Of a stretch of DNA of 14,065 nt, positions 188 to 14,065 are shown piece after piece. Source of the stretch: Coprococcus eutactus (GTDB taxonomy: Bacteria; Bacillota; Clostridia; Oscillospirales; Butyricicoccaceae); contig CAVIRF010000042.1 in the NCBI GenBank assembly GCA_963645185.1, positions 1 to 14,065 of the forward strand, written 5' to 3'. The translations under genes were made by a program, and so were the position numbers. Positions within the stretch are counted from its first letter, which is position 1; the number at the start of each line of letters is the position of its first letter. The notes beneath the pieces were generated by a model. It searched no databases. It was not told the DNA's origin and worked only from the letters and a program-made list of their open reading frames with translations.

Positions 188-500
188 TGCTTTGAACAGG
201 ACACGATTTCCTGTATCACCGCTTTCAGAAAGCCGTCGGTTGTGTGAGACGGCAGCAAGGCACGGAGAAATTATCCCCTGCGAGCAGCTCGAACGAAAGA
301 AAAAGAGTAGTAGTTCGAGACGGAAACCTCCGTTACAGGGTCACGCTTTCCGGCGCAGCGGCACCGGGCGGCGGATGAGCGGCCGGATTTTCTCCGGCAA
401 GCAGAGTGGTAACGCGGAAGTGTAACCGACCGAGTCGGAAATGCCTTCGTCTTTGCAGGTTCTCCCGAAAGAGAGAGCAGGTAAAGACGAGGGCTTTTTT
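188..500 (+). promoter_or_regulatory. T-box riboswitch leader (tRNA-sensing transcription attenuator); candidate specifier AUU (Ile)
   Basis: K-turn at the stem I base: UGC 188-190 pairs with GCA 284-286, UUU loop 191-193, sheared G194-A283 and A195-G282, then CAGG 197-200 pairs with CCUG 277-280. AG-bay-like AGAAA 227-231 is followed by hairpin GCCGUC 232-237 / GACGGC 248-253 with loop GGUUGUGUGA, resembling the stem I distal loop. GAA-AUU-A at 267-273 sits on the 3' side of the internal loop. Stem III hairpin is GCCGGA 382-387 / UCCGGC 393-398. T-box core GCAGAGUGGUAACGCGG (401-417) resembles the consensus GGGUGGUACCGCG. The antiterminator has helix A1 401-406/451-456, a 7-nt bulge UGGUAAC 407-413, and helix A2 414-418/446-450. 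Residues 446-456 are also the 5' arm of the terminator, so the two folds exclude each other. Confidence 0.65.
443..500 (+). terminator. Intrinsic terminator (attenuator) of the cstA leader
   Basis: 14-bp outer stem, GCCUUCGUCUUUGC 443-456 with GUAAAGACGAGGGC 481-494 (includes G-U pairs). An inner UCUC...GAGA extension surrounds a GAAA loop. The stem is followed by UUUUUU 495-500, 66 nt upstream of the cstA ATG. Confidence 0.8.
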
Positions 501-566
501 AGTGCCTGCTTTTCACGCTCATTGACAGAAAAGCCGCAAATCCAAACGGAAAAGAGAAGAAAAGAC

Positions 567-2309
567 ATGAACACACTCACAATCGTGCTGATCGCGGCTG
601 TTGTTCTCGCTTGCGCCTATGTATTCTATGGACGCTGGCTCGCGAACAAATGGGGCATTGATCCCAAGGCCAAGACCCCGGCCGTCGAGTTCAACGACGG
701 CAAGGACTACGTCCCGACCAACGGCTGGACGGTATTCAGCCATCAGTTTTCGTCCATCGCAGGCGCAGGCCCTGTAACCGGTGCAATTCAGGCCGCAGCC
801 TTCGGCTGGCTGCCGGTACTGCTCTGGGTACTGATCGGCGGCGCGTTCTTCGGCGCTGTCACGGACTTCGGCGCACTGTACGCTTCGGTCAAGAACAAGG
901 GCAAGTCGATGGGCATGCTCATCGAGAAGTACATCGGCAAGACCGGCCGTCGCCTGTTCCTCATCTTTGAGTGGATCTTCTGCTGCATCGTTATCGCGGC
1001 GTTCGCCGACATGGTAGCCGGCACGTTCAATGCTTTCGCAGCCAACGACGCAGGCGTTATGGAGCTGTCCCCGGCGGCTCAGACCAACGGCGCTGCCGGC
1101 ATGGTCTCCATCATGTTTATGGTATTCGCTGTTGTATTCGGCCTCATCCAGAAGAAGTTTGACTTCAAGGGCTGGAAGGAAGTCGTTCTCGGCATCGTAT
1201 TCATCATCCTGTCCTTTGTCATCGGCGCGCACTGCCCGCTGATCTTCGGCAAGGCAGCATGGAGCTACATCACCTTCATCTACATCTTCTTCGCAGCGGT
1301 CCTCCCGATGTGGCTGCTCAAGCAGCCGCGCGACTACATGACGACCTTCATGTTCATCTGCATGATCGCCGGTGCAGTCGTCGGTCTGGTCGTTGCACAC
1401 CCGACCATGAACCTGCCGGTATTCACCGGTTTCAACAATGAGAACCTCGGCACCATGTTCCCGATCCTGTTCGTCACGGTTGCGTGCGGCGCGGTTTCCG
1501 GCTTCCACAGCCTGGTTTCCTCCGGTACGTCCTCCAAGACCATCGAGAACGAAAAGGACATGCCGAAGGTAGGCTACGGCGCAATGGTACTGGAAAGCCT
1601 GCTGGCAGTGCTCGCTCTGTGCGTTGCCGGTGCGGCAGCCGCAGCAGACGGCACCCCGGCGGCAGGCACGCCGTTCCAGGTATTCAGCAGCGGCGTTGCA
1701 GGCTTCTTCGAAATGTTCGGTGTTCCGGTTTATGTTGCAACCGTATTCATGACCATGTGCGTTTCCGCGCTGGCGCTGACCAGTCTGGATGCAGTTGCCC
1801 GTATCGGCCGCATGGCTTTCCAGGAGCTGTTCTCCGTTGACGACATGGAGCACGCAGAGGGCTGGAGAAAGCTGTTCTGCAACGTTTATTTCTCCACCAT
1901 CCTCACGCTGGCGTTCGGCTATGTGCTGACCAAGGTTGGCTACGCAAACATCTGGCCGCTGTTCGGTTCCGCAAACCAGCTGCTGAGCGCTCTGGTACTC
2001 ATCACGCTGTGCGTATTCCTCAAGGTCACCGGCCGCAGCAACAAGATGATCTTCCCGCCGCTGATCATCATGCTGTGCGTCACCTTCACCGCTCTGGTAC
2101 AGCGCCTGATCGCGATGGTAAAGGCGATCTCCGCTGCCGCTTCGACGGCTATCCCGGCTGGCGAGACCACGTGGGGCGCGGTATTCATCGCAAACGGCCT
2201 TCAGCTTATCCTCGCGGTTCTGCTGATCGTGCTCGGTCTGACGATCGTTATCCATTCGTTCAAGACCTACGCGAAGAGCGAAAAGAACAGCGAAAGCGCA
2301 AAGGCATAA
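567..2309 (+). CDS. cstA: Carbon starvation protein A family transporter (CstA; peptide/pyruvate transporter family)
   Basis: The N-terminus [33 protein letters not shown] and the motif [25 protein letters not shown]...GAVTDFG match the canonical CstA signature. The protein is polytopic and hydrophobic throughout. I trimmed the ORF-track start (441) to ATG 567 because 441-566 lies in the terminator and leader, and MNT... is the usual CstA N-terminus. Confidence 0.92.
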
Positions 2310-2325
2310 GACAGTCATTAAAAAT

Positions 2326-2361
2326 CCGGCTTTCTTTCGAGAGAGCCGGGTTTTTCTTTTT
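2326..2361 (+). terminator. Intrinsic terminator after cstA
   Basis: 10-bp stem, CCGGCUUUCU 2326-2335 with AGAGAGCCGG 2340-2349, closing a UUCG tetraloop. It is followed by a U-rich run, GUUUUUCUUUUU. Confidence 0.75.
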
Positions 2362-2371
2362 GCCGCCGGTA

Positions 2372-2380
2372 TGCTATAAT
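2372..2380 (+). promoter_or_regulatory. Possible extended -10 promoter for moaC
   Basis: TGcTATAAT at 2372-2380, 28 nt upstream of the moaC ATG. There is no good -35 (T-rich only), so the call rests on the extended -10 alone. Confidence 0.35.
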
Positions 2381-2407
2381 AAAAGAAAAAGCAACGGAGG
2401 CGGAGAT

Positions 2408-2884
2408 ATGGAACTGACCCATCTGGACGAAACGGGCGCGGCGCGCATGGTGGACGTAGGGGAGAAGCCGATCACGCGGCGCACGGCCTGCGCGCAGTCG
2501 GTCATTACGATGAAGCCGGAGACGCTTCGCATGATCTGTGAGGACCGCGCGCCCAAGGGCGACGTTTTCGCGTGTGCGCGCATCGCAGGCATCATGGCGG
2601 CGAAAAAAACGAGCGAGCTTATCCCGATGTGCCATCCCATCCCCATCGAGAGCGTGAAGATCGACATGGAAGCCATCTCGGACACGCAGGTGCGCATTGT
2701 CAGCACGCTGCGCTGCTCGCACAAGACCGGCATCGAAATGGAGGCGCTGACGGCGGCATCCATCGCGGCGCTGACGATCTACGATATGTGCAAGGCGGTC
2801 GACCGCGGCATGCGCATCGACGAAACGCTGCTGCTGCACAAGGACGGCGGCAGGAGCGGAGAATACAGCAGAACGAACGAATAA
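2408..2884 (+). CDS. moaC: Cyclic pyranopterin monophosphate synthase MoaC
   Basis: Collinear with E. coli MoaC: [70 protein letters not shown] at 2396-2400. Start trimmed from the ORF-track 2009 to ATG 2408. Confidence 0.95.
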
Positions 2885-2903: not shown

Positions 2904-3830
2904 ATGAACCTTTTAGAGCAATTTCAGACGATAAAAGAGAACGCGGAGCGCGGCCTTGCGTCGACGCTGCACTTTGAGGCGGAGGGCGCGGAGCTCGTGC
3001 GCAATTTCCGCCCGAATGAGCGGCTGATCCTGCTCGGTGGCGGCAACATCGCGCAGCCGCTCTGCCGCTACGCCGCCGACCTCGGCTTTGAGGTCACTGT
3101 GGCGGACGACCGTCCGACGTTCGCGAACCGGCCGCGCTTTCCGGAAGCGCACACGGTGTACTGCGATCTGTTCGAGGGCGCGATAGATCGAATTGGCATC
3201 GGCGAGGGCGATTATGTCGCGGTCATCACGCGCGGACACCGCTACGATGCGGACTGCCTGCGCAAGATCCTGCGCGGCACGATGCCGAAATACCTCGGCA
3301 TGATCGGCTCAAAGCGGCGCACGGTCGGCCTGCTGAACCTGCTCGAGAGCGAGGGCTTCGACCGGGCGCAGCTGGACGCCATTCACACGCCCATCGGTCT
3401 GGACATCGGCGCGCTGACCGTCAAGGAGATCGCGATCTCCATCGTGGCGGAGCTCATCGCCTGCCGCCGCGCGGACACAAACCGCCGCTCGCACAGCAGC
3501 ATCATGACGAGCGAGGACATCGACCTGCCGCTGCTGCGCTACGTCGCGGACGAGAGCATCGACAAGGTGCTCATGCTCGTGTACGACACGAGCGGCTCGA
3601 CGCCGGTGAAATCCGGCTCCTTCATGGCGGTGGACAGCTCGACGAAGTTCATGGGCACGATCGGCGGCGGATGCAGCGAGAGCGCCGTCCTGCGGCAGGC
3701 CTATTACCTCATCGGCACGGGCGAGAGCAGGTGTGTGACCATCGACATGTCGAACGATGTGGCGGAAAAGGAGGGCATGGTCTGCGGCGGACAGATGAAG
3801 GTGCTGCTCGCAGATCTTTCGAAACAATAA
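2904..3830 (+). CDS. xdhC: XdhC/CoxI-family molybdenum-hydroxylase maturation (accessory) protein with swapped domain order
   Basis: Rossmann-type XdhC_C motifs come first: LILLGGGNIAQPL, VITRGHRYD, YLGMIGSKRR, IHTPIGLDIGALTVKEIAISIVAELIA. XdhC_CoxI motifs follow near the C-terminus: GTIGGGCSESAV and GMVCGGQMKVLL. GGGAG RBS upstream; the gene starts 19 nt after the moaC stop, so the two are likely co-transcribed. Confidence 0.85.
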   Translation: MNLLEQFQTIKENAERGLASTLHFEAEGAELVRNFRPNERLILLGGGNIAQPLCRYAADLGFEVTVADDRPTFANRPRFPEAHTVYCDLFEGAIDRIGIGEGDYVAVITRGHRYDADCLRKILRGTMPKYLGMIGSKRRTVGLLNLLESEGFDRAQLDAIHTPIGLDIGALTVKEIAISIVAELIACRRADTNRRSHSSIMTSEDIDLPLLRYVADESIDKVLMLVYDTSGSTPVKSGSFMAVDSSTKFMGTIGGGCSESAVLRQAYYLIGTGESRCVTIDMSNDVAEKEGMVCGGQMKVLLADLSKQ

Positions 3831-3885: not shown

Positions 3886-4362
3886 TTATTTCGGAAGGGA
3901 AACGCTGTGCGTCTCGCCGTTTTCCGTCCAGTGCACCTCGTCGTCCTGCACGAACAGGCCGGTGCAGCGTCGTCCGCCTGCATTCAGAAAGATCGCGCGG
4001 CCGTCCTGCGTGAGCAGGTAGAGGTTATAATAGTAGTCCGCGGCGTCGCGGTTGCCTGCGGTGTGGCCGAACACAAAGCCGACCATCGCGCCGCCCTCCA
4101 GACGGACATAATTCGTGAAATCGAAGCCGGAGTAGGGCGTCGAGGCGAGGTCAGAGGCCTTCATGCGCTCGCGGTCGTGCTGATAGGCAGGCGTTTCGGT
4201 ATACGCGCCGCCGGGGTAGAGCGCGTCGCAGGACAGATATTTTCTGCCGGGCAGGCAGCAGGCGCTCTGCGCAGGCGCAGCCGCCGCGCCGAGCGGCGTG
4301 CCGCAGTACATGCAGAATTTCGCGCCGTCCGGCAGCGCCTTTCCGCAGTTCATACAAAACAT
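3886..4362 (-). CDS. Zinc-ribbon domain protein, function unknown
   Basis: The N-terminus MFCMNCGKALPDGAKFCMYCGTPL is a CxxC-x10-CxxC zinc ribbon. GGAGAG RBS lies 6 nt before the ATG. The gene starts 12 nt after the stop of the upstream exported-protein gene. Confidence 0.7.
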   Translation of the reverse strand: MFCMNCGKALPDGAKFCMYCGTPLGAAAAPAQSACCLPGRKYLSCDALYPGGAYTETPAYQHDRERMKASDLASTPYSGFDFTNYVRLEGGAMVGFVFGHTAGNRDAADYYYNLYLLTQDGRAIFLNAGGRRCTGLFVQDDEVHWTENGETHSVSLPK

Positions 4363-4374
4363 AGGGGTCTCTCC

Positions 4375-5835
4375 TTATTTCATGTAGGCCGTGATGCCGT
4401 TCGCGTCCATCCACGTGCGCTTGTGCTGCATCAGCGTGTCAAGCACGGGATCGGTGCGCGAAAAACGTTCGCTGAGGTACTTTTGCAGCTTGAACAGGTC
4501 GTCGTAGGTGAGGTAGGGGTAGTCGATATTGCCGTACTCGCCGGTCTGCGAGACCTGATAGTGCAGGTTGTCGTCCGGCAGGACCCAGTCCTCGCCGGTC
4601 TCATCGACCGCGAGCAGCATTTTGTCCGCGAGCGTTCGCAGACTGTCGTCCGCGAGCGTGTCGGCCGCCTTGTACAGCAGCAGGATCTCCGCAAGCTGAT
4701 GGTTCAGACTGGTGTGCGAGACGTTCGACATGTCCTCATGCCAGTAATCCGGGATAAACCAGCCGCTGAGACCGGTCTCGGAATGATAATTCGACGCGAA
4801 ATCCTCGAAAAAGTCGCTGTAGCGGCGCAGCGAATCCCGATAGACATCCGAGGGGAAGCGGTACTCCGCGAGCAGCAGCAGGCTTGCAAACTCGGTATTG
4901 AAACGCGTGTCGTAGAAACCGGCGCCGATGCCGTAATCGCCCTCGAGCCATGTGCTGCCCGACAGCGTCGGCCAGTAACCGGCGTCGCTCTGCTCGGAGA
5001 TCATCGTGTCGAGCATGGCGATGCTGAGGTCGCGCGCCGTGCGGCTCGAACCGGCCTGATAGAGAAAGCTCTTAATAAGGTAGGAGGCCGGGTTGCGGAA
5101 GAAAACGCGGTCGCCGGTCGGAATGTAGGTTTCGGGCGAGGGGGCGTAATATCCGTCGAAGCACCAGCGGCCGTCACCGGCGTTGCGGTAGGTGCTCCAG
5201 AGCGCCGGGATGCCGTCGCGCGCCCAGTCGATGCCGCTGCTGTCCGCGACGGCCAGATAAGTAAAGTCCGCCGCACTGCTGCCCTCCATGCGCGGCGCGC
5301 AGAACGTCAGCCGCCAGCCGTTTTTCGTCTGGGCGGCTTCGATCCAGCCGAGCCAGTTGTCCGCGAGCTGACGCGAGCCGTTCTCGCGGAACGCCCAGAC
5401 CTGCGGCGTGTAGCACAGCGCGGAAAAATCGCTGCCCGTGAGGAAAAAGGCGGTGTTGGAGTGGTATTTTCCGGTGTGGATGGGCTCGTCGTGCCAGACC
5501 TGACCGTCATACCACCGCACGGAAAGCGTGTCGTCCGCGATTTCGGTGGACCAGACCGCACGGGGCCGCAGGGTGTGGCGCGTGGTCTGAAAGCTGCCCA
5601 TCACGCAGCGGTCCTCGTCTCCGAGCGTCCAGCCGCGCAGCAGAAGGACGTTGCTGCCCTGCGGCAGATTGGTCTGGCTGACCTCGACGGTCTCATCACC
5701 GACTTCGTATGTATTCGCGACCGTGCCGAACAGCGCGTCATCCTGCGCGCCTAAGCGCAGCGGCGTGCGGCAGACGCACAGCGCAAGAATGACCGGAACT
5801 GAGGCGAACAGGCAGATTCGTTGCAGAAGTTTCAA
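4375..5835 (-). CDS. Exported or membrane-anchored protein of unknown function (about 486 aa)
   Basis: Long minus-strand ORF. I place the start at TTG 5835-5833 because an AGGAGA RBS (5849-5844) sits 8 nt upstream. The product then begins MKLLQRICLFASVPVILALCVC, a signal-peptide-like N-terminus. The ORF-track extension to 6009 would overlap its own promoter. The C-terminal half (GFYDTRFNTEFA, SHTSLNHQLAEILLLYK) loosely recalls alpha/alpha-toroid epimerase or glycosidase-like folds. I cannot assign a family. Confidence 0.7.
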   Translation of the reverse strand: MKLLQRICLFASVPVILALCVCRTPLRLGAQDDALFGTVANTYEVGDETVEVSQTNLPQGSNVLLLRGWTLGDEDRCVMGSFQTTRHTLRPRAVWSTEIADDTLSVRWYDGQVWHDEPIHTGKYHSNTAFFLTGSDFSALCYTPQVWAFRENGSRQLADNWLGWIEAAQTKNGWRLTFCAPRMEGSSAADFTYLAVADSSGIDWARDGIPALWSTYRNAGDGRWCFDGYYAPSPETYIPTGDRVFFRNPASYLIKSFLYQAGSSRTARDLSIAMLDTMISEQSDAGYWPTLSGSTWLEGDYGIGAGFYDTRFNTEFASLLLLAEYRFPSDVYRDSLRRYSDFFEDFASNYHSETGLSGWFIPDYWHEDMSNVSHTSLNHQLAEILLLYKAADTLADDSLRTLADKMLLAVDETGEDWVLPDDNLHYQVSQTGEYGNIDYPYLTYDDLFKLQKYLSERFSRTDPVLDTLMQHKRTWMDANGITAYMK

Positions 5836-5907
5836 TAAAATGTTCTCCTTTTGCAAAATCGGTATCGCTTTCACAGAAAAGGGAAAGCGGCGGAATATGG
5901 TGCATTC

Positions 5908-5936
5908 AGTATAGCACAGGGCACCGAAAAAGGCAA
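5908..5936 (-). promoter_or_regulatory. Promoter for the exported-protein / zinc-ribbon operon
   Basis: Minus strand reads TTGCCT (5936-5931), 17-nt spacer, TGcTATACT with the -10 at 5913-5908. Confidence 0.5.
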
Positions 5937-5942
5937 CATGCA

Positions 5943-5971
5943 TTGACGAAGCGTGCCCGGCTTGGTATGAT
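5943..5971 (+). promoter_or_regulatory. Promoter for the small acidic protein gene (divergent from the previous promoter)
   Basis: TTGACG (5943-5948), 17-nt spacer, TGgTATGAT with the -10 at 5966-5971, about 30 nt upstream of ATG 6003. Confidence 0.5.
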
Positions 5972-6002
5972 AAAGGCATAACGCGAAAAGGGGAGAGCAG
6001 AC

Positions 6003-6218
6003 ATGGCAAAGATCATTGAATTCGGCACCGCGCCTGACATCGACGCGATGGACGCCGACGCGCTTCGGGACTATCTCGGGGAGATACGCGAGCGCATCGC
6101 GCGCCTCGACGAGGCCGAGCCGGAGGACATGGCGTCCGAGGCCTACGACGAGTGGAGCGAGCAGCACGAAAAGCTGGAGGACATTGCGGACGATATTCTC
6201 GACCGTCTCGAGGAGTAA
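6003..6218 (+). CDS. Small, highly acidic hypothetical protein (71 aa)
   Basis: GGGGAG RBS before ATG 6003, with its own promoter and terminator. I count 25 Asp/Glu and 7 Lys/Arg in 71 residues. The sequence looks predominantly helical. I recognise no family. Confidence 0.6.
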   Translation: MAKIIEFGTAPDIDAMDADALRDYLGEIRERIARLDEAEPEDMASEAYDEWSEQHEKLEDIADDILDRLEE

Positions 6219-6219
6219 G

Positions 6220-6264
6220 AAAAGCCGGAGAGCAGGGAACAAAATCCCAAGCTCTCCGGCTTTT
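6220..6264. terminator. Bidirectional intrinsic terminator (acidic protein gene / ferredoxin gene)
   Basis: AAAAGCCGGAGAGC 6220-6233 pairs with GCUCUCCGGCUUUU 6251-6264. A/U tracts lie on both sides, between convergent stops at 6218 and 6265. Confidence 0.8.
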
Positions 6265-6450
6265 TCAATCTGTCCACGAAATCGCCGCCGTGGGGCAGGC
6301 GTCGATGGCCTCCTGTACGGCGTCGCGGTTTTCTTCCGCCGTATCGAGCGCGTAGGCCTTGCCGACATCGTTCAGCTCGGACACGGCAGGTGCGATATTG
6401 GTGCACAGGCCGCAGCCGATGCAGGCGTCATCGTTTACACAAGCGTTCAC
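6265..6450 (-). CDS. Small ferredoxin (single [4Fe-4S]/[3Fe-4S] cluster type)
   Basis: 61 aa with the motif CIGCGLC ... CP (C-x2-C-x2-C, then a distal Cys-Pro). GTG start preceded by AGGAGG 9 nt upstream. Confidence 0.85.
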   Translation of the reverse strand: MNACVNDDACIGCGLCTNIAPAVSELNDVGKAYALDTAEENRDAVQEAIDACPTAAISWTD

Positions 6451-6498
6451 AGCAATCCGCCTCCTTTTCGGGAGAAGTATAACCGGAAAGCAGGGGCG

Positions 6499-7374
6499 TT
6501 ATTCGCGGCTGAAAAATCGGTAAAACACAAACAGGAGCAGCAGGTACAGCGCAGCGGTGCAGAGGGCAGTAAATTGAAAATTCTCGACATATACATCATG
6601 CCAGTTGACTGCGTGCCGGGCAAACCCCGTTCCATAGCTGATGGAACTCTGTATGTACGAAGGCCTGTCGCGGCTGCTCAGCAGATCGCTTTCATCGGCG
6701 GTGAGCTCTTCGCCGCAGAGCTGTTTGGTTGCCGAAGGAAAGACCTTCACCACATCGAGATAGCTTTCGAGCTCGGCTCTGCTTTGAAAATTCCAACGCA
6801 GGTCATCCGATTTGATTTCGTAATGGTCGGTTTCCTCGACCGGGGTCTGCGCTGTCCATTCGGTTCCGTCGATGCACACGCGGTTCAGACTCAAAATCTT
6901 CCAGTATTCCGTTGTCACGAGTTTTCCGTAAAGCTCTATGGAGCTGCCGCCCGGACAGGCGTAGAGAGCGCGCAGATCGTCGGCGGCGAAATCGGTGAAA
7001 TCAAGGGAATAATCGCTGTCGACACAATATGCGAACAGGCCGGAGCGCTGCACGGTCTGGTTTCCCTGTGCGTCCTTATACTGAAGAATGACCGGCGTTT
7101 CCCATCCGTCTTGACTGGAGGCAATGGTCAGAAAAGCGCGGAGCTGATACCAGTCCGGCGTGCCGGAGACCGGCATGCTGTCCGGGCGGAGACCATGTTC
7201 AGACAGGAAGGTTTCCACATCGTTCGGCGCGTGCATCGTCCACATAAATGCGCTGTCCAGAGCATCGGTTTTTATCTTCTGTACGCCGAAATACACGAAC
7301 GGCGCGAAAAGCAATGCGAGCGTTATCGCGGCGAGCAAGGTCTGCCGCGCGGCTTTGCTGAACCGTTTTTTCAT
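6499..7374 (-). CDS. Membrane protein of unknown function (N- and C-terminal TM helices)
   Basis: MKKRFSKAARQTLLAAITLALLFAPFVYFGV forms the N-terminal TM or signal anchor. TALCTAALYLLLLFVFYRFF forms the C-terminal TM. The roughly 230-aa middle region is soluble. GGAGGGGA RBS precedes the ATG. The gene starts 38 nt after the guaD stop with no terminator between. Confidence 0.7.
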   Translation of the reverse strand: MKKRFSKAARQTLLAAITLALLFAPFVYFGVQKIKTDALDSAFMWTMHAPNDVETFLSEHGLRPDSMPVSGTPDWYQLRAFLTIASSQDGWETPVILQYKDAQGNQTVQRSGLFAYCVDSDYSLDFTDFAADDLRALYACPGGSSIELYGKLVTTEYWKILSLNRVCIDGTEWTAQTPVEETDHYEIKSDDLRWNFQSRAELESYLDVVKVFPSATKQLCGEELTADESDLLSSRDRPSYIQSSISYGTGFARHAVNWHDVYVENFQFTALCTAALYLLLLFVFYRFFSRE

Positions 7375-7412
7375 ATGATCCCCTCCAGCAACGGAATTGT
7401 CCTATCCTGCTG

Positions 7413-8753
7413 TCAGTATACCATAAAACGGCACAGAAGCCATCCGAATTTCCGCGAACGAGCGGCAGATTTCCGAACGGTCGCGGCGGTGCGGCGGTCG
7501 AGCACCAGACGGCCCTCCGACCAGACGGCGCAGACATTCGCGGCGCTCATCGTGTACAGCGCGCGCTCGAGGCGCTCGGACAGGCTGAGCGCCCACGGCG
7601 TTTCCGTGAAATCACGGTCGTCGACCACGACGGCGTGCAGCTGGTCGCCTGCGGCAAAACCGTTTCCGGCACCGAAATAACGGTGGCCGGACGTCGTGCC
7701 GAGATAGTACGCCTCGGGAACGGTCAGGAAGTTCGGCTTTTCCGGGTCGGTGAAGTGGCGGATTTTGGAGGCGCGGATGCTCATCGTGACCATCCGGCTG
7801 CCAGAAAGCGACGAGCCTGCGGCGATGTCCGAGCCGAGCGTGACCCAGAGGCCTTCGTTCAGCATCTGCCGCACGGGCGCGATGCCGCTGCACAGATTGA
7901 TGTTGCTGTCCGGGCAGTGCGCCACGACCGCACCGGCCTGCCGGATGGCGCGGCGCTCGCGCGCGTCCGAGTGGACGCAGTGCGCCATGATGGTGTGGTC
8001 CTTCCACAGACCGAATTTATCGTAGCTCTCCCAGTACTGCGCGCAGTCGGGGTGCAGCTCGCGCACCCACGCGATCTCATCGAGGTTTTCCGATAGATGC
8101 GACTGCACATACAGTCCCTTTTCGGCGGAGATTTTTCCGAGCGCCGCCATCAGCTCATCCGTGCAGGCCGGGGTGAAGCGCGGCGTCAGGATGGGCTTGA
8201 TATGGGTGAAGCGGCTGCACTCCGCAAGCCAGCGCAGCGTCTCGCGGATGGACTCCTCGGTGGTCTCCTGAAGGTTTTCGCCGCCGTTGCGGTCCATGTT
8301 CACCTTGCCGACAAAGCCGGTCACGCCTGCGTTTTCCAGCTCCTCCATCAGCACGAGCGTTGCGTCCGTGTGGAGAGAGGAGAACATGCACACGCGCGTG
8401 GTTCCGTTCGCGATGAGGTCATGCGCGAGCCTGCGGTAGACGCGGCGCGCGTAGCCGAGGTCGGCGAATTTCGCCTCGACCGGGAACGTGTAGGTCTTCA
8501 GCCAGTCGAGCAGCGGCAGGTCCATGCCCATGCCGACGTTCGGGAACTGCGGCGCGTGCAGATGCATGTCGGCAAACGACTGCATGATAAGCTTTCCGGT
8601 GCAGTCGAATACCTCGCCATCGAAATCCTGCGGCGCTTTGTGCAGCACCTCGCAGATCGTGCCGTCGTCCTCGAGCAGCAGCGCGCCGTCCGGGATGATC
8701 TCGAGCGTTCCGAGCGCTGGCGCATGAACAATGTCGCCCTTCAAAAGTTTCAT
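7413..8753 (-). CDS. guaD: Guanine deaminase (amidohydrolase superfamily)
   Basis: Collinear with E. coli GuaD: SFADMHLHAPQFPNVG...PLLDWLKTYTFP, ANGTTR, TPRFTP, HLSENLDEIAWVRELHPD, AHCVH, HCPDSNINLCSG, LGSDIAAG. I prefer the start at ATG 8753 (MKLLKG), 8 nt after GGAAAGGA. ATG 8762 is an alternative, and the ORF-track start at 8825 lies inside the riboswitch. The C-terminus extends about 20 aa beyond where E. coli GuaD ends. Confidence 0.92.
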   Translation of the reverse strand: MKLLKGDIVHAPALGTLEIIPDGALLLEDDGTICEVLHKAPQDFDGEVFDCTGKLIMQSFADMHLHAPQFPNVGMGMDLPLLDWLKTYTFPVEAKFADLGYARRVYRRLAHDLIANGTTRVCMFSSLHTDATLVLMEELENAGVTGFVGKVNMDRNGGENLQETTEESIRETLRWLAECSRFTHIKPILTPRFTPACTDELMAALGKISAEKGLYVQSHLSENLDEIAWVRELHPDCAQYWESYDKFGLWKDHTIMAHCVHSDARERRAIRQAGAVVAHCPDSNINLCSGIAPVRQMLNEGLWVTLGSDIAAGSSLSGSRMVTMSIRASKIRHFTDPEKPNFLTVPEAYYLGTTSGHRYFGAGNGFAAGDQLHAVVVDDRDFTETPWALSLSERLERALYTMSAANVCAVWSEGRLVLDRRTAATVRKSAARSRKFGWLLCRFMVY

Positions 8754-8783
8754 TTTTTTCATCCTTTCCGTAATCTGGGCATG

Positions 8784-8825
8784 AAAAAAGTGCCCGTCAG
8801 ATGGAACCTTCCCATCAGCGGACAC
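8784..8825 (-). terminator. Riboswitch expression platform: intrinsic terminator
   Basis: Minus-strand RNA GUGUCCGCUGAUGG-gaagguu-CCAUCUGACGGGCAC followed by UUUUUU. The stem has one mismatch and one bulge. It begins at the last nucleotide of aptamer helix P1 and ends about 30 nt before the guaD start. Confidence 0.7.
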
Positions 8826-8889
8826 TCATAGTGAGGTCTTTCGGCGACCTCGTAGAAACTCTCGCGCCATGACAGCGAGACTATATGAG
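8825..8889 (-). promoter_or_regulatory. Purine riboswitch aptamer, guanine/hypoxanthine class
   Basis: Minus-strand RNA: CUCAUAUAGUCUCGCUGUCAUGGCGCGAGAGUUUCUACGAGGUCGCCGAAAGACCUCACUAUGAG. Compared with the B. subtilis xpt G-box: P1 is CUCAUAU/AUAUGAG, J2/3 AGUUUCUAC is identical, L2 is UCAUGG, and L3 GCCGAAA provides the GG/CC kissing pairs. The AC before the P1 3' strand carries the C74-equivalent (minus-strand C at 8831). Confidence 0.9.
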
Positions 8890-8907
8890 CTCTTTTTTCC
8901 GTAGGCT

Positions 8908-8936
8908 ATCATAACAGCCGCCGCGGCGTTTGTCAA
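8908..8936 (-). promoter_or_regulatory. Promoter of the riboswitch-guaD operon
   Basis: Minus strand reads TTGACA (8936-8931), 17-nt spacer, TATGAT (8913-8908), about 20 nt upstream of aptamer P1. Confidence 0.6.
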
Positions 8937-9051: not shown

Positions 9052-9080
9052 GTGACATATGTCGAAAACAATGGTATACT
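9052..9080 (+). promoter_or_regulatory. Candidate promoter of the cas operon
   Basis: GTGACA (9052-9057), 17-nt spacer, TGgTATACT with the -10 at 9075-9080, inside an AT-rich intergenic stretch about 36 nt upstream of the cas3 ATG. Confidence 0.45.
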
Positions 9081-9115
9081 GGTGAAGAAAGAGAAAATTC
9101 TGGAAGGTGCGGCGT

Positions 9116-11830
9116 ATGAACAAAATGCAGCAGGCAATGCGAGGAACGGTCGCGAAAACCGATCCGCAGGATCGTCAGTATTATCTGCCGACGTGGATGC
9201 ACGCGATGGATACCGCAGGCGTGATGGAATACCTCTGCCGCGAATGGCTGCCGCAGTCGGTTTTCCGGCGGCTGTCCGAGGAGGTCGGAGAGGATATTTT
9301 TCTGGGAGTGTGCTGTCTGCTGGTGCTGCTGCACGACATCGGCAAGCTGATCGCGCTTTTTCAGTCAAAAATTCAAATTCATCTGGACGATTACGCCGGG
9401 TGCAGACTGAATTTTCCGGGAGCATTCAACTATAATATGCCGCACGCGAGAGCGAGCGAAGCAATCCTGCTGAAATACGGCTTTCCGCGCTCGCTGGCGG
9501 CGATCATCGGCGCGCATCACGGAAAGCCGCAGGATGATGACGTGGACAGCGCGATAGAGACCAGTCCGTGCTGCTTTTACGGTGTGGACGAGGAAAAAGA
9601 GGCGTGGGAGACCTGCTGGCGGCAGACGATCGACGCGGCGCTGGAGCAGTGCGGCTTTGCGTCGGTGGAAGAGCTGCCCGAGGTGTCTATGTCCGCGCAA
9701 ATGGTTCTGACCGGCCTGCTCATTATGGCGGACTGGCTCGCGAGCAATACGGATTATTTTCCAGTGATACCGGTCGAGCAGAGCGGCGAGGAAGAGTGGT
9801 ATCCCGAGCGAGTGGACGCCGCGTGGGAGACGATAGACCTGCCTGCCCCGTGGGAAAGTCAGACATTCGGAATGGACGCACAGAAGTTCGACAAGGAATT
9901 CGGCTTTGCACCGAGACATGTTCAGCAGGCGGCGATAAACGCAGGAAACGAAGCGGCCGCGCCGGGGATTTTCATTCTGGAAGCCTCGATGGGATGCGGA
10001 AAAACGGAAGCCAGCCTCGCGCTCGCAGAGATACTCGCGCAGCGGACGGGGAGCGGCGGCCTGTTCTTCGGCCTGCCGACACAGGCGACGGCGAATGGCC
10101 TGTTTTCCCGAGTCAGACAATGGGCGGAGTATCAGTCGTCGGAGGAGAGACACGGCATTCGTCTGGCGCATGGCGCATCCGCGATGAACGCGGAATATCA
10201 GGAGCTGTTTCACGGCTCTGCCGAGATTTCGGAGGACGAAGAGGGCGGTCTGATCGTTCACAGCTGGTTCGAGGGACAAAAACAGGCGCTCCTCGCGGAT
10301 TTTGTCATCGGAACGGTGGATCAGCTGCTGATGGCATCGCTGCAAAATAAGCATTTGATGCTGCGGCATCTGGGACTTGCCGGGAAAGTGGTTATCATAG
10401 ATGAGGTCCATTCGTATTCGCACCATATGAACGCCTATCTGGACCGCACGCTGACATGGCTCGGTGAATACGGCGCGCCGGTCATCGTTCTGTCGGCGAC
10501 GCTGCCGGAGGAGCGGCGAGCAGCGCTCGTGCAGGCTTATTTGCAGGGGTGTTCGCATCAGTCGAAGGCGGTAAAGCTGCCGGAAGATGCCGAATGGCGG
10601 CACAGTCTGGCCTATCCGCTGCTGACATGGACGGACGGCATGGAGGTCAATCAGACCGTGATCGAGACGGACGGAGACAGCAAAACGGTCGAAATTGAAC
10701 GGGAAACGCTCGAAAACCTGTCTGAGCGTCTGCGAGATGAGCTCGCAGAGGGCGGCTGTGCCGGCGTTATCGTCAATACGGTGCGCCGGGCGCAGAAAAT
10801 CGCGGCGGAACTGAGGGAAAAGCTGCCCGAAATGCGCGTGGTTGTGTTCCACTCGCAGTTTGTCATGGCAGACCGCGTGCGGCGCGAGCAGATGCTGCTG
10901 GAGGTGGTAGGCAAGCACTCGACCGCAGAGCAGAGAGACCGGCTGATCGTGGTCGGAACGCAGGTGATCGAGCAGTCTCTCGATTTAGACCTCGATGTGC
11001 TGTTCACCGACCTGTGTCCGATGGACCTGCTGTTGCAGCGCATCGGCCGCCTGCACCGCCATCATCTACGTATCCGTCCGGAACAGCTGCGCGTGCCGCG
11101 CTGTCTCGTGCTGGAGGCGGACGGCGACGAGCTCGAACCGGGCGCGAAGGCGATCTATGGTCCGTGGCTGCTGCTGCGGACAAAAGAGCTGCTGCCAGAG
11201 CAGATCGTGCTGCCGCAGGACATTCCGGTTCTGGTGCAGAAAACCTACCGAAAACCGGAGGAAGCACCGCTTACTGAGCAGGAACGCGCTGCGTGGGAGC
11301 AGTATGAGATGGAAAAACGCGACAGTTACGGAAAGGCGAACAGTTTCCGGCTGACCGCACCAAAGCACAGACGCCGCGGCGTCAGCACGATCGAAGGGAT
11401 TCTGAACGCCGACCCAGGCAGCACCGAGGCAAGCGCCGAAAAAAGCGTGCGCGGCGGCGACCCGTCCATCGAGGTACTGGTGCTTCAGCAGGATGAAAAC
11501 GGGTATCTGTATCTGCTCGGAGCCCCGGAAATGCCGCTGTACGCAGATCATGTGCCGTCGGCATCGGAATGCAGAGAAATCGCAAAGCAGCGCCTGCGGC
11601 TGTCCGGACGCTTCAGCAGGCGATGGATGGTCGATGCAGTGATTGCTGAGCTGGAAGAAAAAACAAAAGCACTCGCGGAATGGCAGCAGTCTCCGTGGCT
11701 GCGCGGCGAGGTTTTCCTGTTGCTGGACGAAAACGGCCGCACCATGCTGCACGGCACGCTGCTGCGCTATTCGGCAGAGGACGGTCTGTGCATCGAAGAG
11801 AAGGAAGAAAATGCCAGAAAAAGAGTTTAA
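9116..11830 (+). CDS. cas3: CRISPR-associated helicase/nuclease Cas3 (HD domain fused to SF2 helicase), type I-E
   Basis: HD nuclease motifs: WMHAMD, LLHDIGK, GAHHGK. Helicase motifs: MGCGKTEA (Walker A), IIDEVHSY (DEVH), SATLP, QRIGRLHRH (motif VI). I prefer ATG 9116 (GGAAGG 8 nt upstream) over the ORF-track GTG at 9107. It is followed by cse1 and cse2. Confidence 0.93.
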   Translation: MNKMQQAMRGTVAKTDPQDRQYYLPTWMHAMDTAGVMEYLCREWLPQSVFRRLSEEVGEDIFLGVCCLLVLLHDIGKLIALFQSKIQIHLDDYAGCRLNFPGAFNYNMPHARASEAILLKYGFPRSLAAIIGAHHGKPQDDDVDSAIETSPCCFYGVDEEKEAWETCWRQTIDAALEQCGFASVEELPEVSMSAQMVLTGLLIMADWLASNTDYFPVIPVEQSGEEEWYPERVDAAWETIDLPAPWESQTFGMDAQKFDKEFGFAPRHVQQAAINAGNEAAAPGIFILEASMGCGKTEASLALAEILAQRTGSGGLFFGLPTQATANGLFSRVRQWAEYQSSEERHGIRLAHGASAMNAEYQELFHGSAEISEDEEGGLIVHSWFEGQKQALLADFVIGTVDQLLMASLQNKHLMLRHLGLAGKVVIIDEVHSYSHHMNAYLDRTLTWLGEYGAPVIVLSATLPEERRAALVQAYLQGCSHQSKAVKLPEDAEWRHSLAYPLLTWTDGMEVNQTVIETDGDSKTVEIERETLENLSERLRDELAEGGCAGVIVNTVRRAQKIAAELREKLPEMRVVVFHSQFVMADRVRREQMLLEVVGKHSTAEQRDRLIVVGTQVIEQSLDLDLDVLFTDLCPMDLLLQRIGRLHRHHLRIRPEQLRVPRCLVLEADGDELEPGAKAIYGPWLLLRTKELLPEQIVLPQDIPVLVQKTYRKPEEAPLTEQERAAWEQYEMEKRDSYGKANSFRLTAPKHRRRGVSTIEGILNADPGSTEASAEKSVRGGDPSIEVLVLQQDENGYLYLLGAPEMPLYADHVPSASECREIAKQRLRLSGRFSRRWMVDAVIAELEEKTKALAEWQQSPWLRGEVFLLLDENGRTMLHGTLLRYSAEDGLCIEEKEENARKRV

Positions 11831-13445
11831 TCTGATCGACGAGCCGTGGGTGCGCGTCATGCGGCAGGACGGCGAAATCGAGGAGGTCTCGCTCCTGGAT
11901 GCGCTCCTGCGAGCCCACGAATTTGCAGATCTCGCAGGAGAAACGCAGACGCAGAATATCGCGGTGCTCCGTCTGCTGCTGGCGGTGCTGCATACCGTTT
12001 TTTCGCGTGTGGACGAAGCCGGAGAGGACGCGCCGCTCGAGGACGAGGACGACGCCTTTGACCGCTGGGGCGCGCTGTGGGAAAACGGCAGTTTTCCGGA
12101 AAAGCCGATCGTAGACTATTTGGAGAAATGGCATGAGCGGTTCTGGCTGTTCCATCCCGAGCGGCCGTTCATGCAGGCGGTCAGTGCGGAGAACGGCACG
12201 CAGTGCGCAGCCTCCAAGCTGATCGGAGAGCTGAGCGAAAGCGGCAACAAGCTGAGGCTGTTTCCGTCTCGCACGGGCGAAGGGAAAAAGTCGGTCAGCT
12301 ATGCGGAAGCTGCAAGGTGGCTGCTGTACTTAAATGGGTTTGATGATGCGGCACTCAAGCCGCATATTCCAAAGGAGCAGCGTCAGAGTACGATCTCGGT
12401 CGCATGGCTTGGAAAACTTGGTCTGGTCTATGCCAAAGGGGACAGCCTGTATGAAACGCTGCTTTTGAACTGCGTTTTCCTGAAAAACGGCTTAGAGCTG
12501 CGGGGAGAGCCGCAGCCGGACTGGGAGAGAGATACACCGCGAGAAAACGAATTGCGTACGATTGCGGTTCCCGACGATAATGCGGCGCTTTTAACAGTCC
12601 GGTCCCGTTTAATCCGGCTGAACCGGGAGCAGGGAAGCGTAAGCGGCTACGGCATTCTCTGCGGTGACTCGTTCAGCGGCGAAAATGCCTTTGCCGAGCA
12701 GATGACAGTATGGCGATATGTGCCGGAGAAAAAGGGACAGGCGGCGTATTATTATCCCCAGATGCATCTGGCAAACCGGCAGATGTGGCGTGATTTTGCC
12801 AACATGTTTACAGAAGCCGCGGATGGAGGCAATACGCATCTGCCCGGCGTTGTCATGTGGGCTGCAGCCCTGCAGAGAGAAGGCCTGCTGTACAGAAAGA
12901 AGTTTATTCAGTTTGCTGTGACGGGAAACCGGTATGACAGCTCGCAGAAAAGCGCAGTGACAGACAGCATCGGTGACAGTCTGACGTTCCACACGGAGCT
13001 GTTTGGTCAGATGTGCGTCGGCTGGCGCAGACGCATTATGGAAGAGATACAGAAATGCGACAATGCAGCGGCGGCAGTCGGACTGCTGGTCAGAAATATT
13101 CACATTGCAGGCGGCGGAGATACCGAAAAAACGTCTGAGCCTGCATCACAGGCTCGGGGAAAATGGTACGAACGGTTAGACAGGCCGTTCCGTGAATGGC
13201 TGAGATCAATCGATCCGGAAAAAGATAGCATCGATGCAAGAACAGCGGAGTGGCAGGAGTATGCACGCAGTGAGGCGCTGCGCCTTGGCAGGGAGCTGGT
13301 TGCGCAGGCGGGAGAAAAGGCGCTGTTTGGTCGGACAATCGAATTGAAAACCGGAGGCAAAGTGAAAAAACAGCATTATTCAGCGCCGGAGGCGTATCTG
13401 TGGTTTCAGGCGAAGATTTATAAAGAGTATCCGAAGGAGGGATAA
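11811..13445 (+). CDS. cse1: Type I-E Cascade large subunit Cse1/CasA (Cas8e)
   Basis: The N-terminus MPEKEFNLIDEPWVRV matches the Cse1 hallmark FNLLxxPWIPV. FWLFHPERPFMQ matches the conserved H..PFMQ motif. The start at ATG 11811 follows GAGAAGGAAG and overlaps the cas3 3' end by 20 nt. The ORF-track start at 11643 is an out-of-frame read through cas3. Confidence 0.88.
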   Translation: MPEKEFNLIDEPWVRVMRQDGEIEEVSLLDALLRAHEFADLAGETQTQNIAVLRLLLAVLHTVFSRVDEAGEDAPLEDEDDAFDRWGALWENGSFPEKPIVDYLEKWHERFWLFHPERPFMQAVSAENGTQCAASKLIGELSESGNKLRLFPSRTGEGKKSVSYAEAARWLLYLNGFDDAALKPHIPKEQRQSTISVAWLGKLGLVYAKGDSLYETLLLNCVFLKNGLELRGEPQPDWERDTPRENELRTIAVPDDNAALLTVRSRLIRLNREQGSVSGYGILCGDSFSGENAFAEQMTVWRYVPEKKGQAAYYYPQMHLANRQMWRDFANMFTEAADGGNTHLPGVVMWAAALQREGLLYRKKFIQFAVTGNRYDSSQKSAVTDSIGDSLTFHTELFGQMCVGWRRRIMEEIQKCDNAAAAVGLLVRNIHIAGGGDTEKTSEPASQARGKWYERLDRPFREWLRSIDPEKDSIDARTAEWQEYARSEALRLGRELVAQAGEKALFGRTIELKTGGKVKKQHYSAPEAYLWFQAKIYKEYPKEG

Positions 13446-13447
13446 AT

Positions 13448-14065
13448 GTGTGGGAACAGAAAAACGGCCATACGCCGCATGAGCTGTCCGGCTGGGTAGA
13501 GCGCCGCATCACGCGCATTCTGGCCATGCCGGAGGGCGGCGCGCAGCGCGCGCTGCTGGCAGAGCTGCGGCGCGGCGTCGGCAAGGCGCCGGGAGAGCTG
13601 CCGCGGCTGTGGGGCGTACTGTTTGAAGAGTTTCCGGAGGAATGGCTGTCGGAACGGGACGGCGCGAGCCGGTATGAGTGGGCGGCGTACCTCGCGCTGA
13701 CGCTGTTTGCCCTGCATCAGCAGAGCAGGGACCCGAAAACCGACCCGATGCACAAGGACGGACAGCCGCTCGGACGGGCGCTCAGCCGTCTGGCAGATGA
13801 AGACGATAGTGAGGGTGCAAGAGAGCGCATTCTCCGGCGCTTTCAGCAGATGGCGACGGCGACGGACATCAAGGGCGCGGCATATCACCTGCGCGGACTG
13901 GTGCAGCTGCTGCGAGCGGCGGATATTCCGCTGGATTATGCGTCGCTCGCATGGGATTTGTATCAGTATCAGAGCAGCAGCAGTGTCGCGGCGGTACGGC
14001 TGCGGTGGGCGCAGGATTTCTATCGCATGAACAAGGATGAAAACGGAAAGGAAGAAGAAAAATGA
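13448..14065 (+). CDS. cse2: Type I-E Cascade small subunit Cse2/CasB (Cas11)
   Basis: Position immediately after cse1. GTG start 7 nt after AGGAGG. The 205-aa Arg/Leu-rich helical protein (RALLAELRRGVGK, YHLRGLVQLLRAA) is typical of Cse2. The stop TGA is at 14063-14065, and ATG 14062-14064 overlaps it, probably the start of cas7, which is cut off by the window. Confidence 0.8.
   Translation: MWEQKNGHTPHELSGWVERRITRILAMPEGGAQRALLAELRRGVGKAPGELPRLWGVLFEEFPEEWLSERDGASRYEWAAYLALTLFALHQQSRDPKTDPMHKDGQPLGRALSRLADEDDSEGARERILRRFQQMATATDIKGAAYHLRGLVQLLRAADIPLDYASLAWDLYQYQSSSSVAAVRLRWAQDFYRMNKDENGKEEEK

Follow-up and report, generated by a model that had tools for sequence, protein, structure and literature searches.

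The Bacillus subtilis xpt-pbuX guanine-I riboswitch, reportedly described by Mandal et al. in 2003, is an OFF switch, in which the terminator lies about 45 nt past P1 and the 3' strand of P1 forms an antiterminator with the 5' arm of the terminator. The B. subtilis pbuE (ydhL) riboswitch is an adenine-sensing transcriptional ON switch with a U at position 74. Guanine-I riboswitches have been described as repressing genes for purine synthesis, salvage and uptake (PMC9295807, PMC12445698). For the guanine-II riboswitches of Paenibacillus phosphoribosyltransferase genes, which sense guanine, activation via a terminator has been predicted and reported (PMC9295807, PMC12445698). The 8-oxoguanine riboswitch of Paenibacillaceae, which is located upstream of 8-oxoguanine deaminase genes, lacks U47 and prefers 8-oxoguanine (PMC10556655). 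In a literature search of incomplete coverage, we found neither a guanine-I aptamer on a guanine deaminase gene nor a guanine-I ON switch.

Here, we analysed a window of 14,065 nucleotides (the whole stretch of DNA), in which a guanine-I riboswitch precedes a gene for a guanine-deaminase-family protein. The architecture of this leader and of related leaders makes it probable that the riboswitch acts on guanine deaminase as a transcriptional ON switch; that it binds its ligand, in which direction it regulates and how a truncated stem affects termination are what we infer from this architecture. The promoter, the start region and the gene are located as follows:

8936-8908, minus strand: SigA-type (sigma-70) promoter with the -35 element TTGACA (8936-8931), a spacer of 17 nt and the extended -10 element TGtTATGAT (8916-8908)
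8767-8751, minus strand: ribosome binding site AAAGGA (8767-8762), A-rich spacer and start codon ATG (8753-8751), read from the sequence
8753-7413, minus strand: guanine-deaminase-family amidohydrolase gene, 446 aa plus stop codon (TIGR02967, PF01979)

The promoter matches 11 of 12 consensus positions and carries a TG ahead of the -10 element, and its position places the likely transcript start near 8900. The start codon of the deaminase gene was set by comparison with its orthologues, all of which begin with MKLLKG; a further ATG ahead of it, at 8762, is not in frame in the orthologous locus L001. The earlier note had named the regulated gene a guanine deaminase, and its membership of that family is borne out: TIGR02967 is the best NCBIfam match of the 446-aa protein by a wide margin (319.4 bits, compared with only 93 bits for the 8-oxoguanine deaminase model), and, as this score lies under the equivalog cut-off of 375.4, guanine is to be read as its presumed substrate. 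The best solved structure is the Clostridium acetobutylicum guanine deaminase 2I9U (E 6e-98), with which the motifs HxH...Q, PRF, HxxE and GSD align, and further matches are the human (2UZ9, E 9e-72), yeast (6OH9, 4e-66) and E. coli (6OHB, 7e-52) guanine deaminases.

The riboswitch itself lies between the promoter and the gene and is composed of the following parts:

8908-8809, minus strand: purine riboswitch, RF00167 match with flanks (54.5 bits, E 3.3e-07, model positions 1-102)
8890-8824, minus strand: aptamer core, from the Rfam alignment, folding and an alignment of 49 sequences
8890-8884 with 8830-8824, minus strand: P1, 7 bp, with an outer G.U pair
8880-8875 with 8865-8860, minus strand: P2, 6 bp
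8851-8846 with 8838-8833, minus strand: P3, 6 bp
8883, 8858, 8854 and 8831, minus strand: pocket nucleotides U22, U47, U51 and C74, all canonical

The RF00167 match exceeds the gathering score of 37 and spans the full model, and no other Rfam family was matched in the whole window, which, together with the canonical pocket nucleotides, confirms the earlier assignment as a C74-type purine riboswitch. J2/3 (GUUUCUAC) and J3/1 (AC) of the window have guanine-I lengths without insertions. Across the 49 aligned aptamers, U22, U47, U49-C53, C74 and U75-G78 are invariant, 95.8% of the P1, P2 and P3 cells are paired (at most 60% in slid-partner controls), and 13 of the 19 aptamer pairs show compensatory changes on both sides. 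The same alignment has a conserved AUGG in L2 and GCC in L3, which provides a sequence basis for the predicted L2-L3 contact; L3 of the window is 2 nt shorter than the Rfam consensus. By these features the element is a conserved, canonical aptamer of the guanine-I class that presumably binds guanine.

Several related classes were considered and rejected. An adenine riboswitch needs U74, and a C is found at 8831 and in all 49 relatives. The 8-oxoguanine class is without U47, a nucleotide that is present here (8858) and invariant in the relatives. Guanine-II and xanthine-II aptamers have J2/3 enlarged by 1 or 2 nt, guanine-II has a J3/1 enlarged by 3 or 4 nt, and position 51 is changed in xanthine-II (PMC9295807, PMC12445698); the window has no junction insertions and keeps U51. 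Some variation exists among the orthologous aptamers: position 73 varies between A, G and U and position 24 between A and G, and a subgroup of six (L006, L007, L008, L010, L013 and L027) has an extra nucleotide before G46, which pairs with G24, with a J3/1 that remains 2 nt long.

The 3' strand of P1 runs directly into the terminator:

8827-8788, minus strand: intrinsic terminator hairpin, bulged; the full form (-21.9 kcal/mol) takes in the first two U of the U tract
8789-8784, minus strand: U6 tract, from the sequence
8827-8824, minus strand: shared nucleotides G78, A79, G80 and U81, which pair either with the P1 5' strand (8887-8890) or with 8791-8788

A consensus terminator scan detected no terminator in the leader because the stem is bulged, and the scan was replaced by an energy-based search for the best hairpin with a U-rich tail. 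G80 and U81 are shared by the terminator and P1, as are A79 and G78 if pairs with the U tract are counted, since the alternative partners at 8791-8788 comprise both 3'-arm nucleotides and the two U at the head of the tract. Since the last nucleotides of the P1 3' strand are also part of the terminator stem, P1 and the terminator cannot both be complete at the same time. The earlier note had described a terminator that starts at the last P1 nucleotide and is otherwise independent of the aptamer; it does abut P1, but it is not merely adjacent to it, as G78-U81 belong to both. When P1 is locked, the hairpin can only be formed from G82 (-14.7 kcal/mol) and stops 2 nt short of the U tract, so that the hairpin loses 7.2 kcal/mol through P1 locking and its stem is set apart from the U tract by A-C; a form that runs from G80 to C8790 has -19.0 kcal/mol. 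The ordinary stem pairs that are contested in the window are G80-C and U81-A only, whereas A79-U and G78.U rely on U-tract residues that are in the RNA:DNA hybrid when termination occurs. For the leader in the window, the P1-complete fold (-40.7 kcal/mol) and the terminator-complete fold (-41.4 to -42.4 kcal/mol) differ by 0.7-1.7 kcal/mol, with a barrier of about 4 kcal/mol on the path between them, and the minimum-energy fold of a transcript that ends in ...CAC has the full aptamer including P1 and a hairpin that is 2 bp short.

A terminator base that uses P1 nucleotides without a spacer is an ON layout, and the switch could function in the following way. Transcription would begin near 8900 and the aptamer would fold first. 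Without ligand, the 7-bp P1 would be marginally stable, and the 3' arm of the emerging hairpin could, in a short branch migration, capture G78-U81 from the outer part of P1; the -22 kcal/mol terminator would then be completed flush against the U6 tract, and RNA polymerase would stop before guaD. With guanine bound, P1 would be locked and the hairpin would close only to the G82-C8792 pair, in which case a 2-nt A-C spacer, which includes one strong rC:dG hybrid pair, would part the stem from the U tract, termination would fail and guaD would be transcribed. Hypoxanthine and xanthine may also bind and act likewise. The enzyme would thus be made when its substrate accumulates. In intrinsic termination, the closing pairs beside the U tract are the most important ones. 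Because only two ordinary stem pairs are contested in the window lineage, the dynamic range of the switch could be small. The window has this shallow overlap in common with 15 other leaders; in all of them, closure of the terminator to G80 might be compatible with a ligand-bound aptamer whose P1 has frayed to 5 bp, and the switch would then be weak.

A survey of guaD orthologues for the same element, as proposed in the earlier note, indicates that the overlap is not peculiar to this window. A search with the deaminase in a collection of species-representative genomes gave 80 orthologous loci, the closest of which is from Agathobaculum hominis (94% amino-acid identity), the rest being mostly labelled as Oscillospiraceae or other Clostridia. 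RF00167 was found upstream of guaD on the same strand in 48 of these 80 loci, 41 times within 130 nt of the start codon. Together with the window this gave a set of 49 leaders, for each of which the RNA was folded from U75 onward and an energy-based terminator search was performed, and 47 of them have a terminator. Of these terminator stems, 40 start at nt 78 and the other 7 at nt 76, and hence the stem overlaps the P1 3' strand in 47 of 47. The two leaders without a terminator, L029 (805-923) and L074 (2906-3030), have their guaD start codons 40 and 21 nt past C74, respectively, and the start region of L074 (CAUAUGAG) is similar to the P1 3' strand, a sign that the platform of this leader may be translational.

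At its end, the terminator 3' arm repeats the sequence of the P1 5' strand. Opposite G78, R79 and G80, 20 leaders have C, U and C, and in 11 more at least one of G78 and R79 faces a C (31 of 47 in all); in the remaining 16, including the window, the arm ends in C-U-U, so that the two U that open the tract serve as partners of G78 and A79. An A at position 79 is always opposite U in these terminators and a G opposite C or U, and position 81 pairs in both contexts (G.U, A-U, G-C, U.G or U-A in P1 and U-A, U.G or C-G in the terminator). As the terminator pairs come from energy minimisation they are canonical by construction, and the start position of the stem is the unbiased part of this evidence. 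The P1-complete fold is less stable than the terminator-complete fold in 40 of the 47 leaders; the median difference of 2.0 kcal/mol is small, and ligand binding could therefore reverse it.

We also compared these leaders with two sets of controls. The first consisted of 120 canonical guanine aptamers that were collected by sequence pattern, mostly from Bacilli, 106 of which have a terminator. Only three of these 106 terminators start at nt 81 or earlier, all of them weak, lone-pair structures, and most start at nt 98 or later, i.e. at least 17 nt past P1. The second set, which guards against an effect of taxonomy, consisted of 118 aptamers with the same core from Clostridia and Fusobacteria, whose downstream genes were classed by blastx against guaD and hydantoinase. 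To take the first downstream ORF of at least 100 aa as the regulated gene was abandoned in favour of blastx, as this picked spurious GC-rich ORFs. The overlap layout was found in 60 of 60 leaders of guaD (52) or hydantoinase genes (8), compared with 3 of 57 leaders of other genes (Fisher p = 3e-30), counts and a p-value that overstate independence, as the samples share loci and the sequences are related. Despite this non-independent sampling, the overlap layout is clearly associated with catabolic genes. The non-overlap leaders of the second set head pbuX, guaB, purL and purE, which are classical repressed genes. The two B. subtilis systems were run through the same search with presumed leader sequences: for xpt the terminator start is placed at nt 121, and for pbuE there is an overlap of about 18 nt that starts in P3. 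The search from nt 75 misses the pbuE stem because this stem begins in P3, and it recovers the stem when the segment starts there. Six loci of this collection, five from Cetobacterium (L213, L238, L240, L262 and L276) and L314, have a guanine-type aptamer before a TRZ/ATZ-type amidohydrolase gene, with an ordinary OFF-like platform whose terminator lies 40-75 nt past P1. This amidohydrolase shares about 23% identity with the window deaminase, and its best match is 5'-deoxyadenosine deaminase-like.

If the leader is an ON switch, its trigger could be the oxopurine pool, i.e. hypoxanthine and/or xanthine, the latter being the product of the enzyme, and not guanine specifically. Hypoxanthine and xanthine are further ligands of guanine-I aptamers (PMC12445698, PMC9295807), the pocket found here is the unmodified guanine-I pocket, and the same type of riboswitch heads hydantoinase-guaD operons that resemble general purine catabolism (with MocA in L062). 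On the other hand, guanine is the tightest ligand of the class as well as the substrate of the first gene, and the variation at positions 24 (A/G) and 73 (A/G/U) within the group may alter selectivity. We regard this reading as unlikely, although it fares better than the two considered below.

It might also be argued that the aptamer binds its ligand but that an overlap of 2 nt is too small to affect termination, so that the hairpin is a constitutive attenuator or regulation occurs mainly at another level. The small number of shared nucleotides is in line with this idea: in the window, L001-L003 and 12 other leaders, sharing outside the U tract is confined to G80 and U81, and the two complete folds of the window lie within 0.7-1.7 kcal/mol of each other. 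Against it, the C-U-U arrangement is found in 16 leaders from several genera with both aptamer and terminator intact, the covariation shows purifying selection on the aptamer, and P1 locking takes 7.2 kcal/mol from the hairpin; the closing pairs beside the U tract are generally the most critical for termination. We therefore consider a weak or uncoupled element to be improbable.

The earlier note had favoured an xpt-like OFF switch, in which a ligand-stabilised P1 permits the adjoining terminator to form, with the result that guanine represses its own deaminase, and in which, without ligand, the unfolded P2/L2 segment pairs with the terminator 3' arm as an antiterminator. The lack of a spacer between P1 and the terminator makes stacking possible, the transcript ending in ...CAC can hold P1 together with a hairpin 2 bp short, and the resemblance that was pointed out between P2/L2 (CGCUGUCAUGG, 8877-8867) and the terminator 5' arm of the window (CGCUGAUGG, 8820-8812) is real. 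However, the 3' arm pairs with the aptamer body at only -9.6 kcal/mol, a value no better than that of shuffled arms (z = +0.84), and arm-to-aptamer complementarity over the 47 leaders has a median z of 0.15 (3' arm) or 0.45 (5' arm), with none below -2; the P2/L2 near-copy was thus rejected as an antiterminator. The similarity also fades in L002 and L003 and is absent beyond the closest relatives, and, given this restriction and the lack of excess complementarity, we take the likeness to be due to chance. Nor did the proposed xpt-like layout hold: the terminator base is located inside P1 and competes with it in 47 of 47 leaders, whereas typical OFF leaders have a terminator at least 17 nt past P1, mostly starting at nt 98 or later in the OFF-type controls, which leaves room for an antiterminator made from the P1 3' strand, and the overlap layout tracks catabolic genes while the pbuX, guaB, purL and purE leaders of related taxa have the other layout. 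An OFF switch is hence without structural support and is in our view very improbable. The fallback offered in the earlier note, that the platform works in a way unseen by eye, is supported by the comparison of leaders.

In a constrained fold, the 5' A tract GAAAAAAG (8899-8892) paired over a long range with CUUUUUUC in the terminator (8790-8783); this helix was also rejected. Complementarity between flank and tail is weak across the orthologues (median -3.9 kcal/mol, z = -0.56) and the flank is about as rich in A as that of ordinary guanine riboswitches (0.50 versus 0.42), for which reasons this helix was treated as an effect of composition. The U tract plus CAU (8790-8781, minus strand) is the exact complement of GAAAAAAG (8899-8892) and of AUGAAAAAA (8762-8754); the latter sits between the ribosome binding site and the start codon, and this second complementarity is present only in the window and in L001. 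Such complementary segments might play a part in mRNA stability or translation.

In five loci the riboswitch is located 1.5-2.3 kb upstream of guaD with intervening genes. A D-hydantoinase-family gene lies between the riboswitch and guaD in L050 and L062, followed in L062 by a MocA-like gene, and in the E. coli K-12 region guaD is found among the hyuA, mocA, yqeB and xdh genes, i.e. in the same gene company. In a MAG labelled Oscillospiraceae (L007), an OLE RNA (RF01071, 402 bits, 4356-5022) is found directly downstream of the guaD orthologue. In the window, the plus strand on either side of the riboswitch and guaD carries the following genes:

441-2309, plus strand: CstA, by domain match
2009-2884, plus strand: ORF with a MoaC domain, the N-terminal 130 aa of which overlap cstA
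2904-3830, plus strand: XdhC-family maturation factor, by domain match
9107-11830, plus strand: cas3, with HD and helicase domains
about 11643-13445, plus strand: cse1
from 13448, plus strand: cse2

The true start of MoaC probably lies later than 2009. MoaC and the XdhC-family factor are molybdenum-cofactor genes, which is consistent with a purine hydroxylase nearby. The cas genes belong to a type I-E CRISPR-Cas operon (9107-14065, plus strand) that diverges from the riboswitch promoter and has a promoter-like site at 9052-9080 on the plus strand. Downstream of guaD there are four co-directional ORFs on the minus strand (3889-7374): 7374-6502 (291 aa), 6368-5874, 6009-4378 (544 aa) and 4362-3889 (158 aa). 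Apart from an N-terminal zinc ribbon in the last of these, none of the four gave a Pfam or NCBIfam match. GC3 and conservation in Agathobaculum indicate that 6009-4378 and 4362-3889 are real genes, and support is weaker for 7374-6502 and 6368-5874. The long ORFs on the plus strand at 3907-5754 and 6016-7680 look like antisense shadows.

If the leader acts as an ON switch, the paradox of a metabolite that represses its own degrading enzyme goes away and the leader fits substrate induction. An unmodified guanine-I aptamer would then be wired in the opposite way on the guaD and hydantoinase-guaD operons of many gut Clostridia, whose genes are similar to those of the ygeW-guaD purine catabolism region of E. 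coli. Both the class of the aptamer and the principle of an ON switch by terminator overlap are already well known. It is evenly balanced, in our estimate, whether the leaders that precede guaD and hydantoinase genes in gut Oscillospiraceae and other Clostridia make up a widespread, as yet undescribed set of guanine-I riboswitches that activate catabolism through a shallow platform, in which the ligand holds the outer 2-6 nt of P1. In that case, the regulatory decision would be taken at the last step of terminator closure, beside the U tract, and since guanine-I aptamers also bind xanthine, the product of the enzyme could keep the switch on as a feed-forward signal. An overlap of 2-6 nt with P1 would illustrate how little evolution uses to reverse the sign of a terminator switch, and such leaders would be of use in riboswitch engineering and, as a test case from nature, in modelling how switches act during transcription.

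With the B. subtilis xpt-pbuX riboswitch (RF00167), the window shares the common aptamer class with its three-way junction, L2-L3 contact (predicted in the window) and U22/U47/U51/C74 pocket, the same P1 core (CUCAUA/UAUGRG) and control by an intrinsic terminator. It differs from xpt in that its terminator starts inside the P1 3' strand, that no antiterminator was found and that its gene consumes guanine, whereas the xpt-pbuX genes make or import purines. The pbuE riboswitch is more similar in its platform, as the terminator 5' arm takes in the P1 3' strand in both cases and a ligand-locked P1 prevents termination, in the window by prediction. However, the pbuE terminator also consumes the P3 3' strand and J3/1 (about 18 nt in the presumed sequence), whereas 2-6 nt of P1 are involved here, and position 74 is a C. 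Guanine-II riboswitches have 1 nt more in J2/3 and 3 or 4 more in J3/1 and are associated with phosphoribosyltransferase genes, in contrast to the guanine-I junction lengths and the deaminase gene of the window. The 8-oxoguanine riboswitch resembles the proposed switch in several respects, being an ON switch derived from guanine-I that controls a purine deaminase of the amidohydrolase family by competition between terminator and P1 (PMC10556655). Its terminator also competes with P3, whereas the window retains U47 and encodes an enzyme that fits guanine deaminase over 8-oxoguanine deaminase (319 versus 93 bits).
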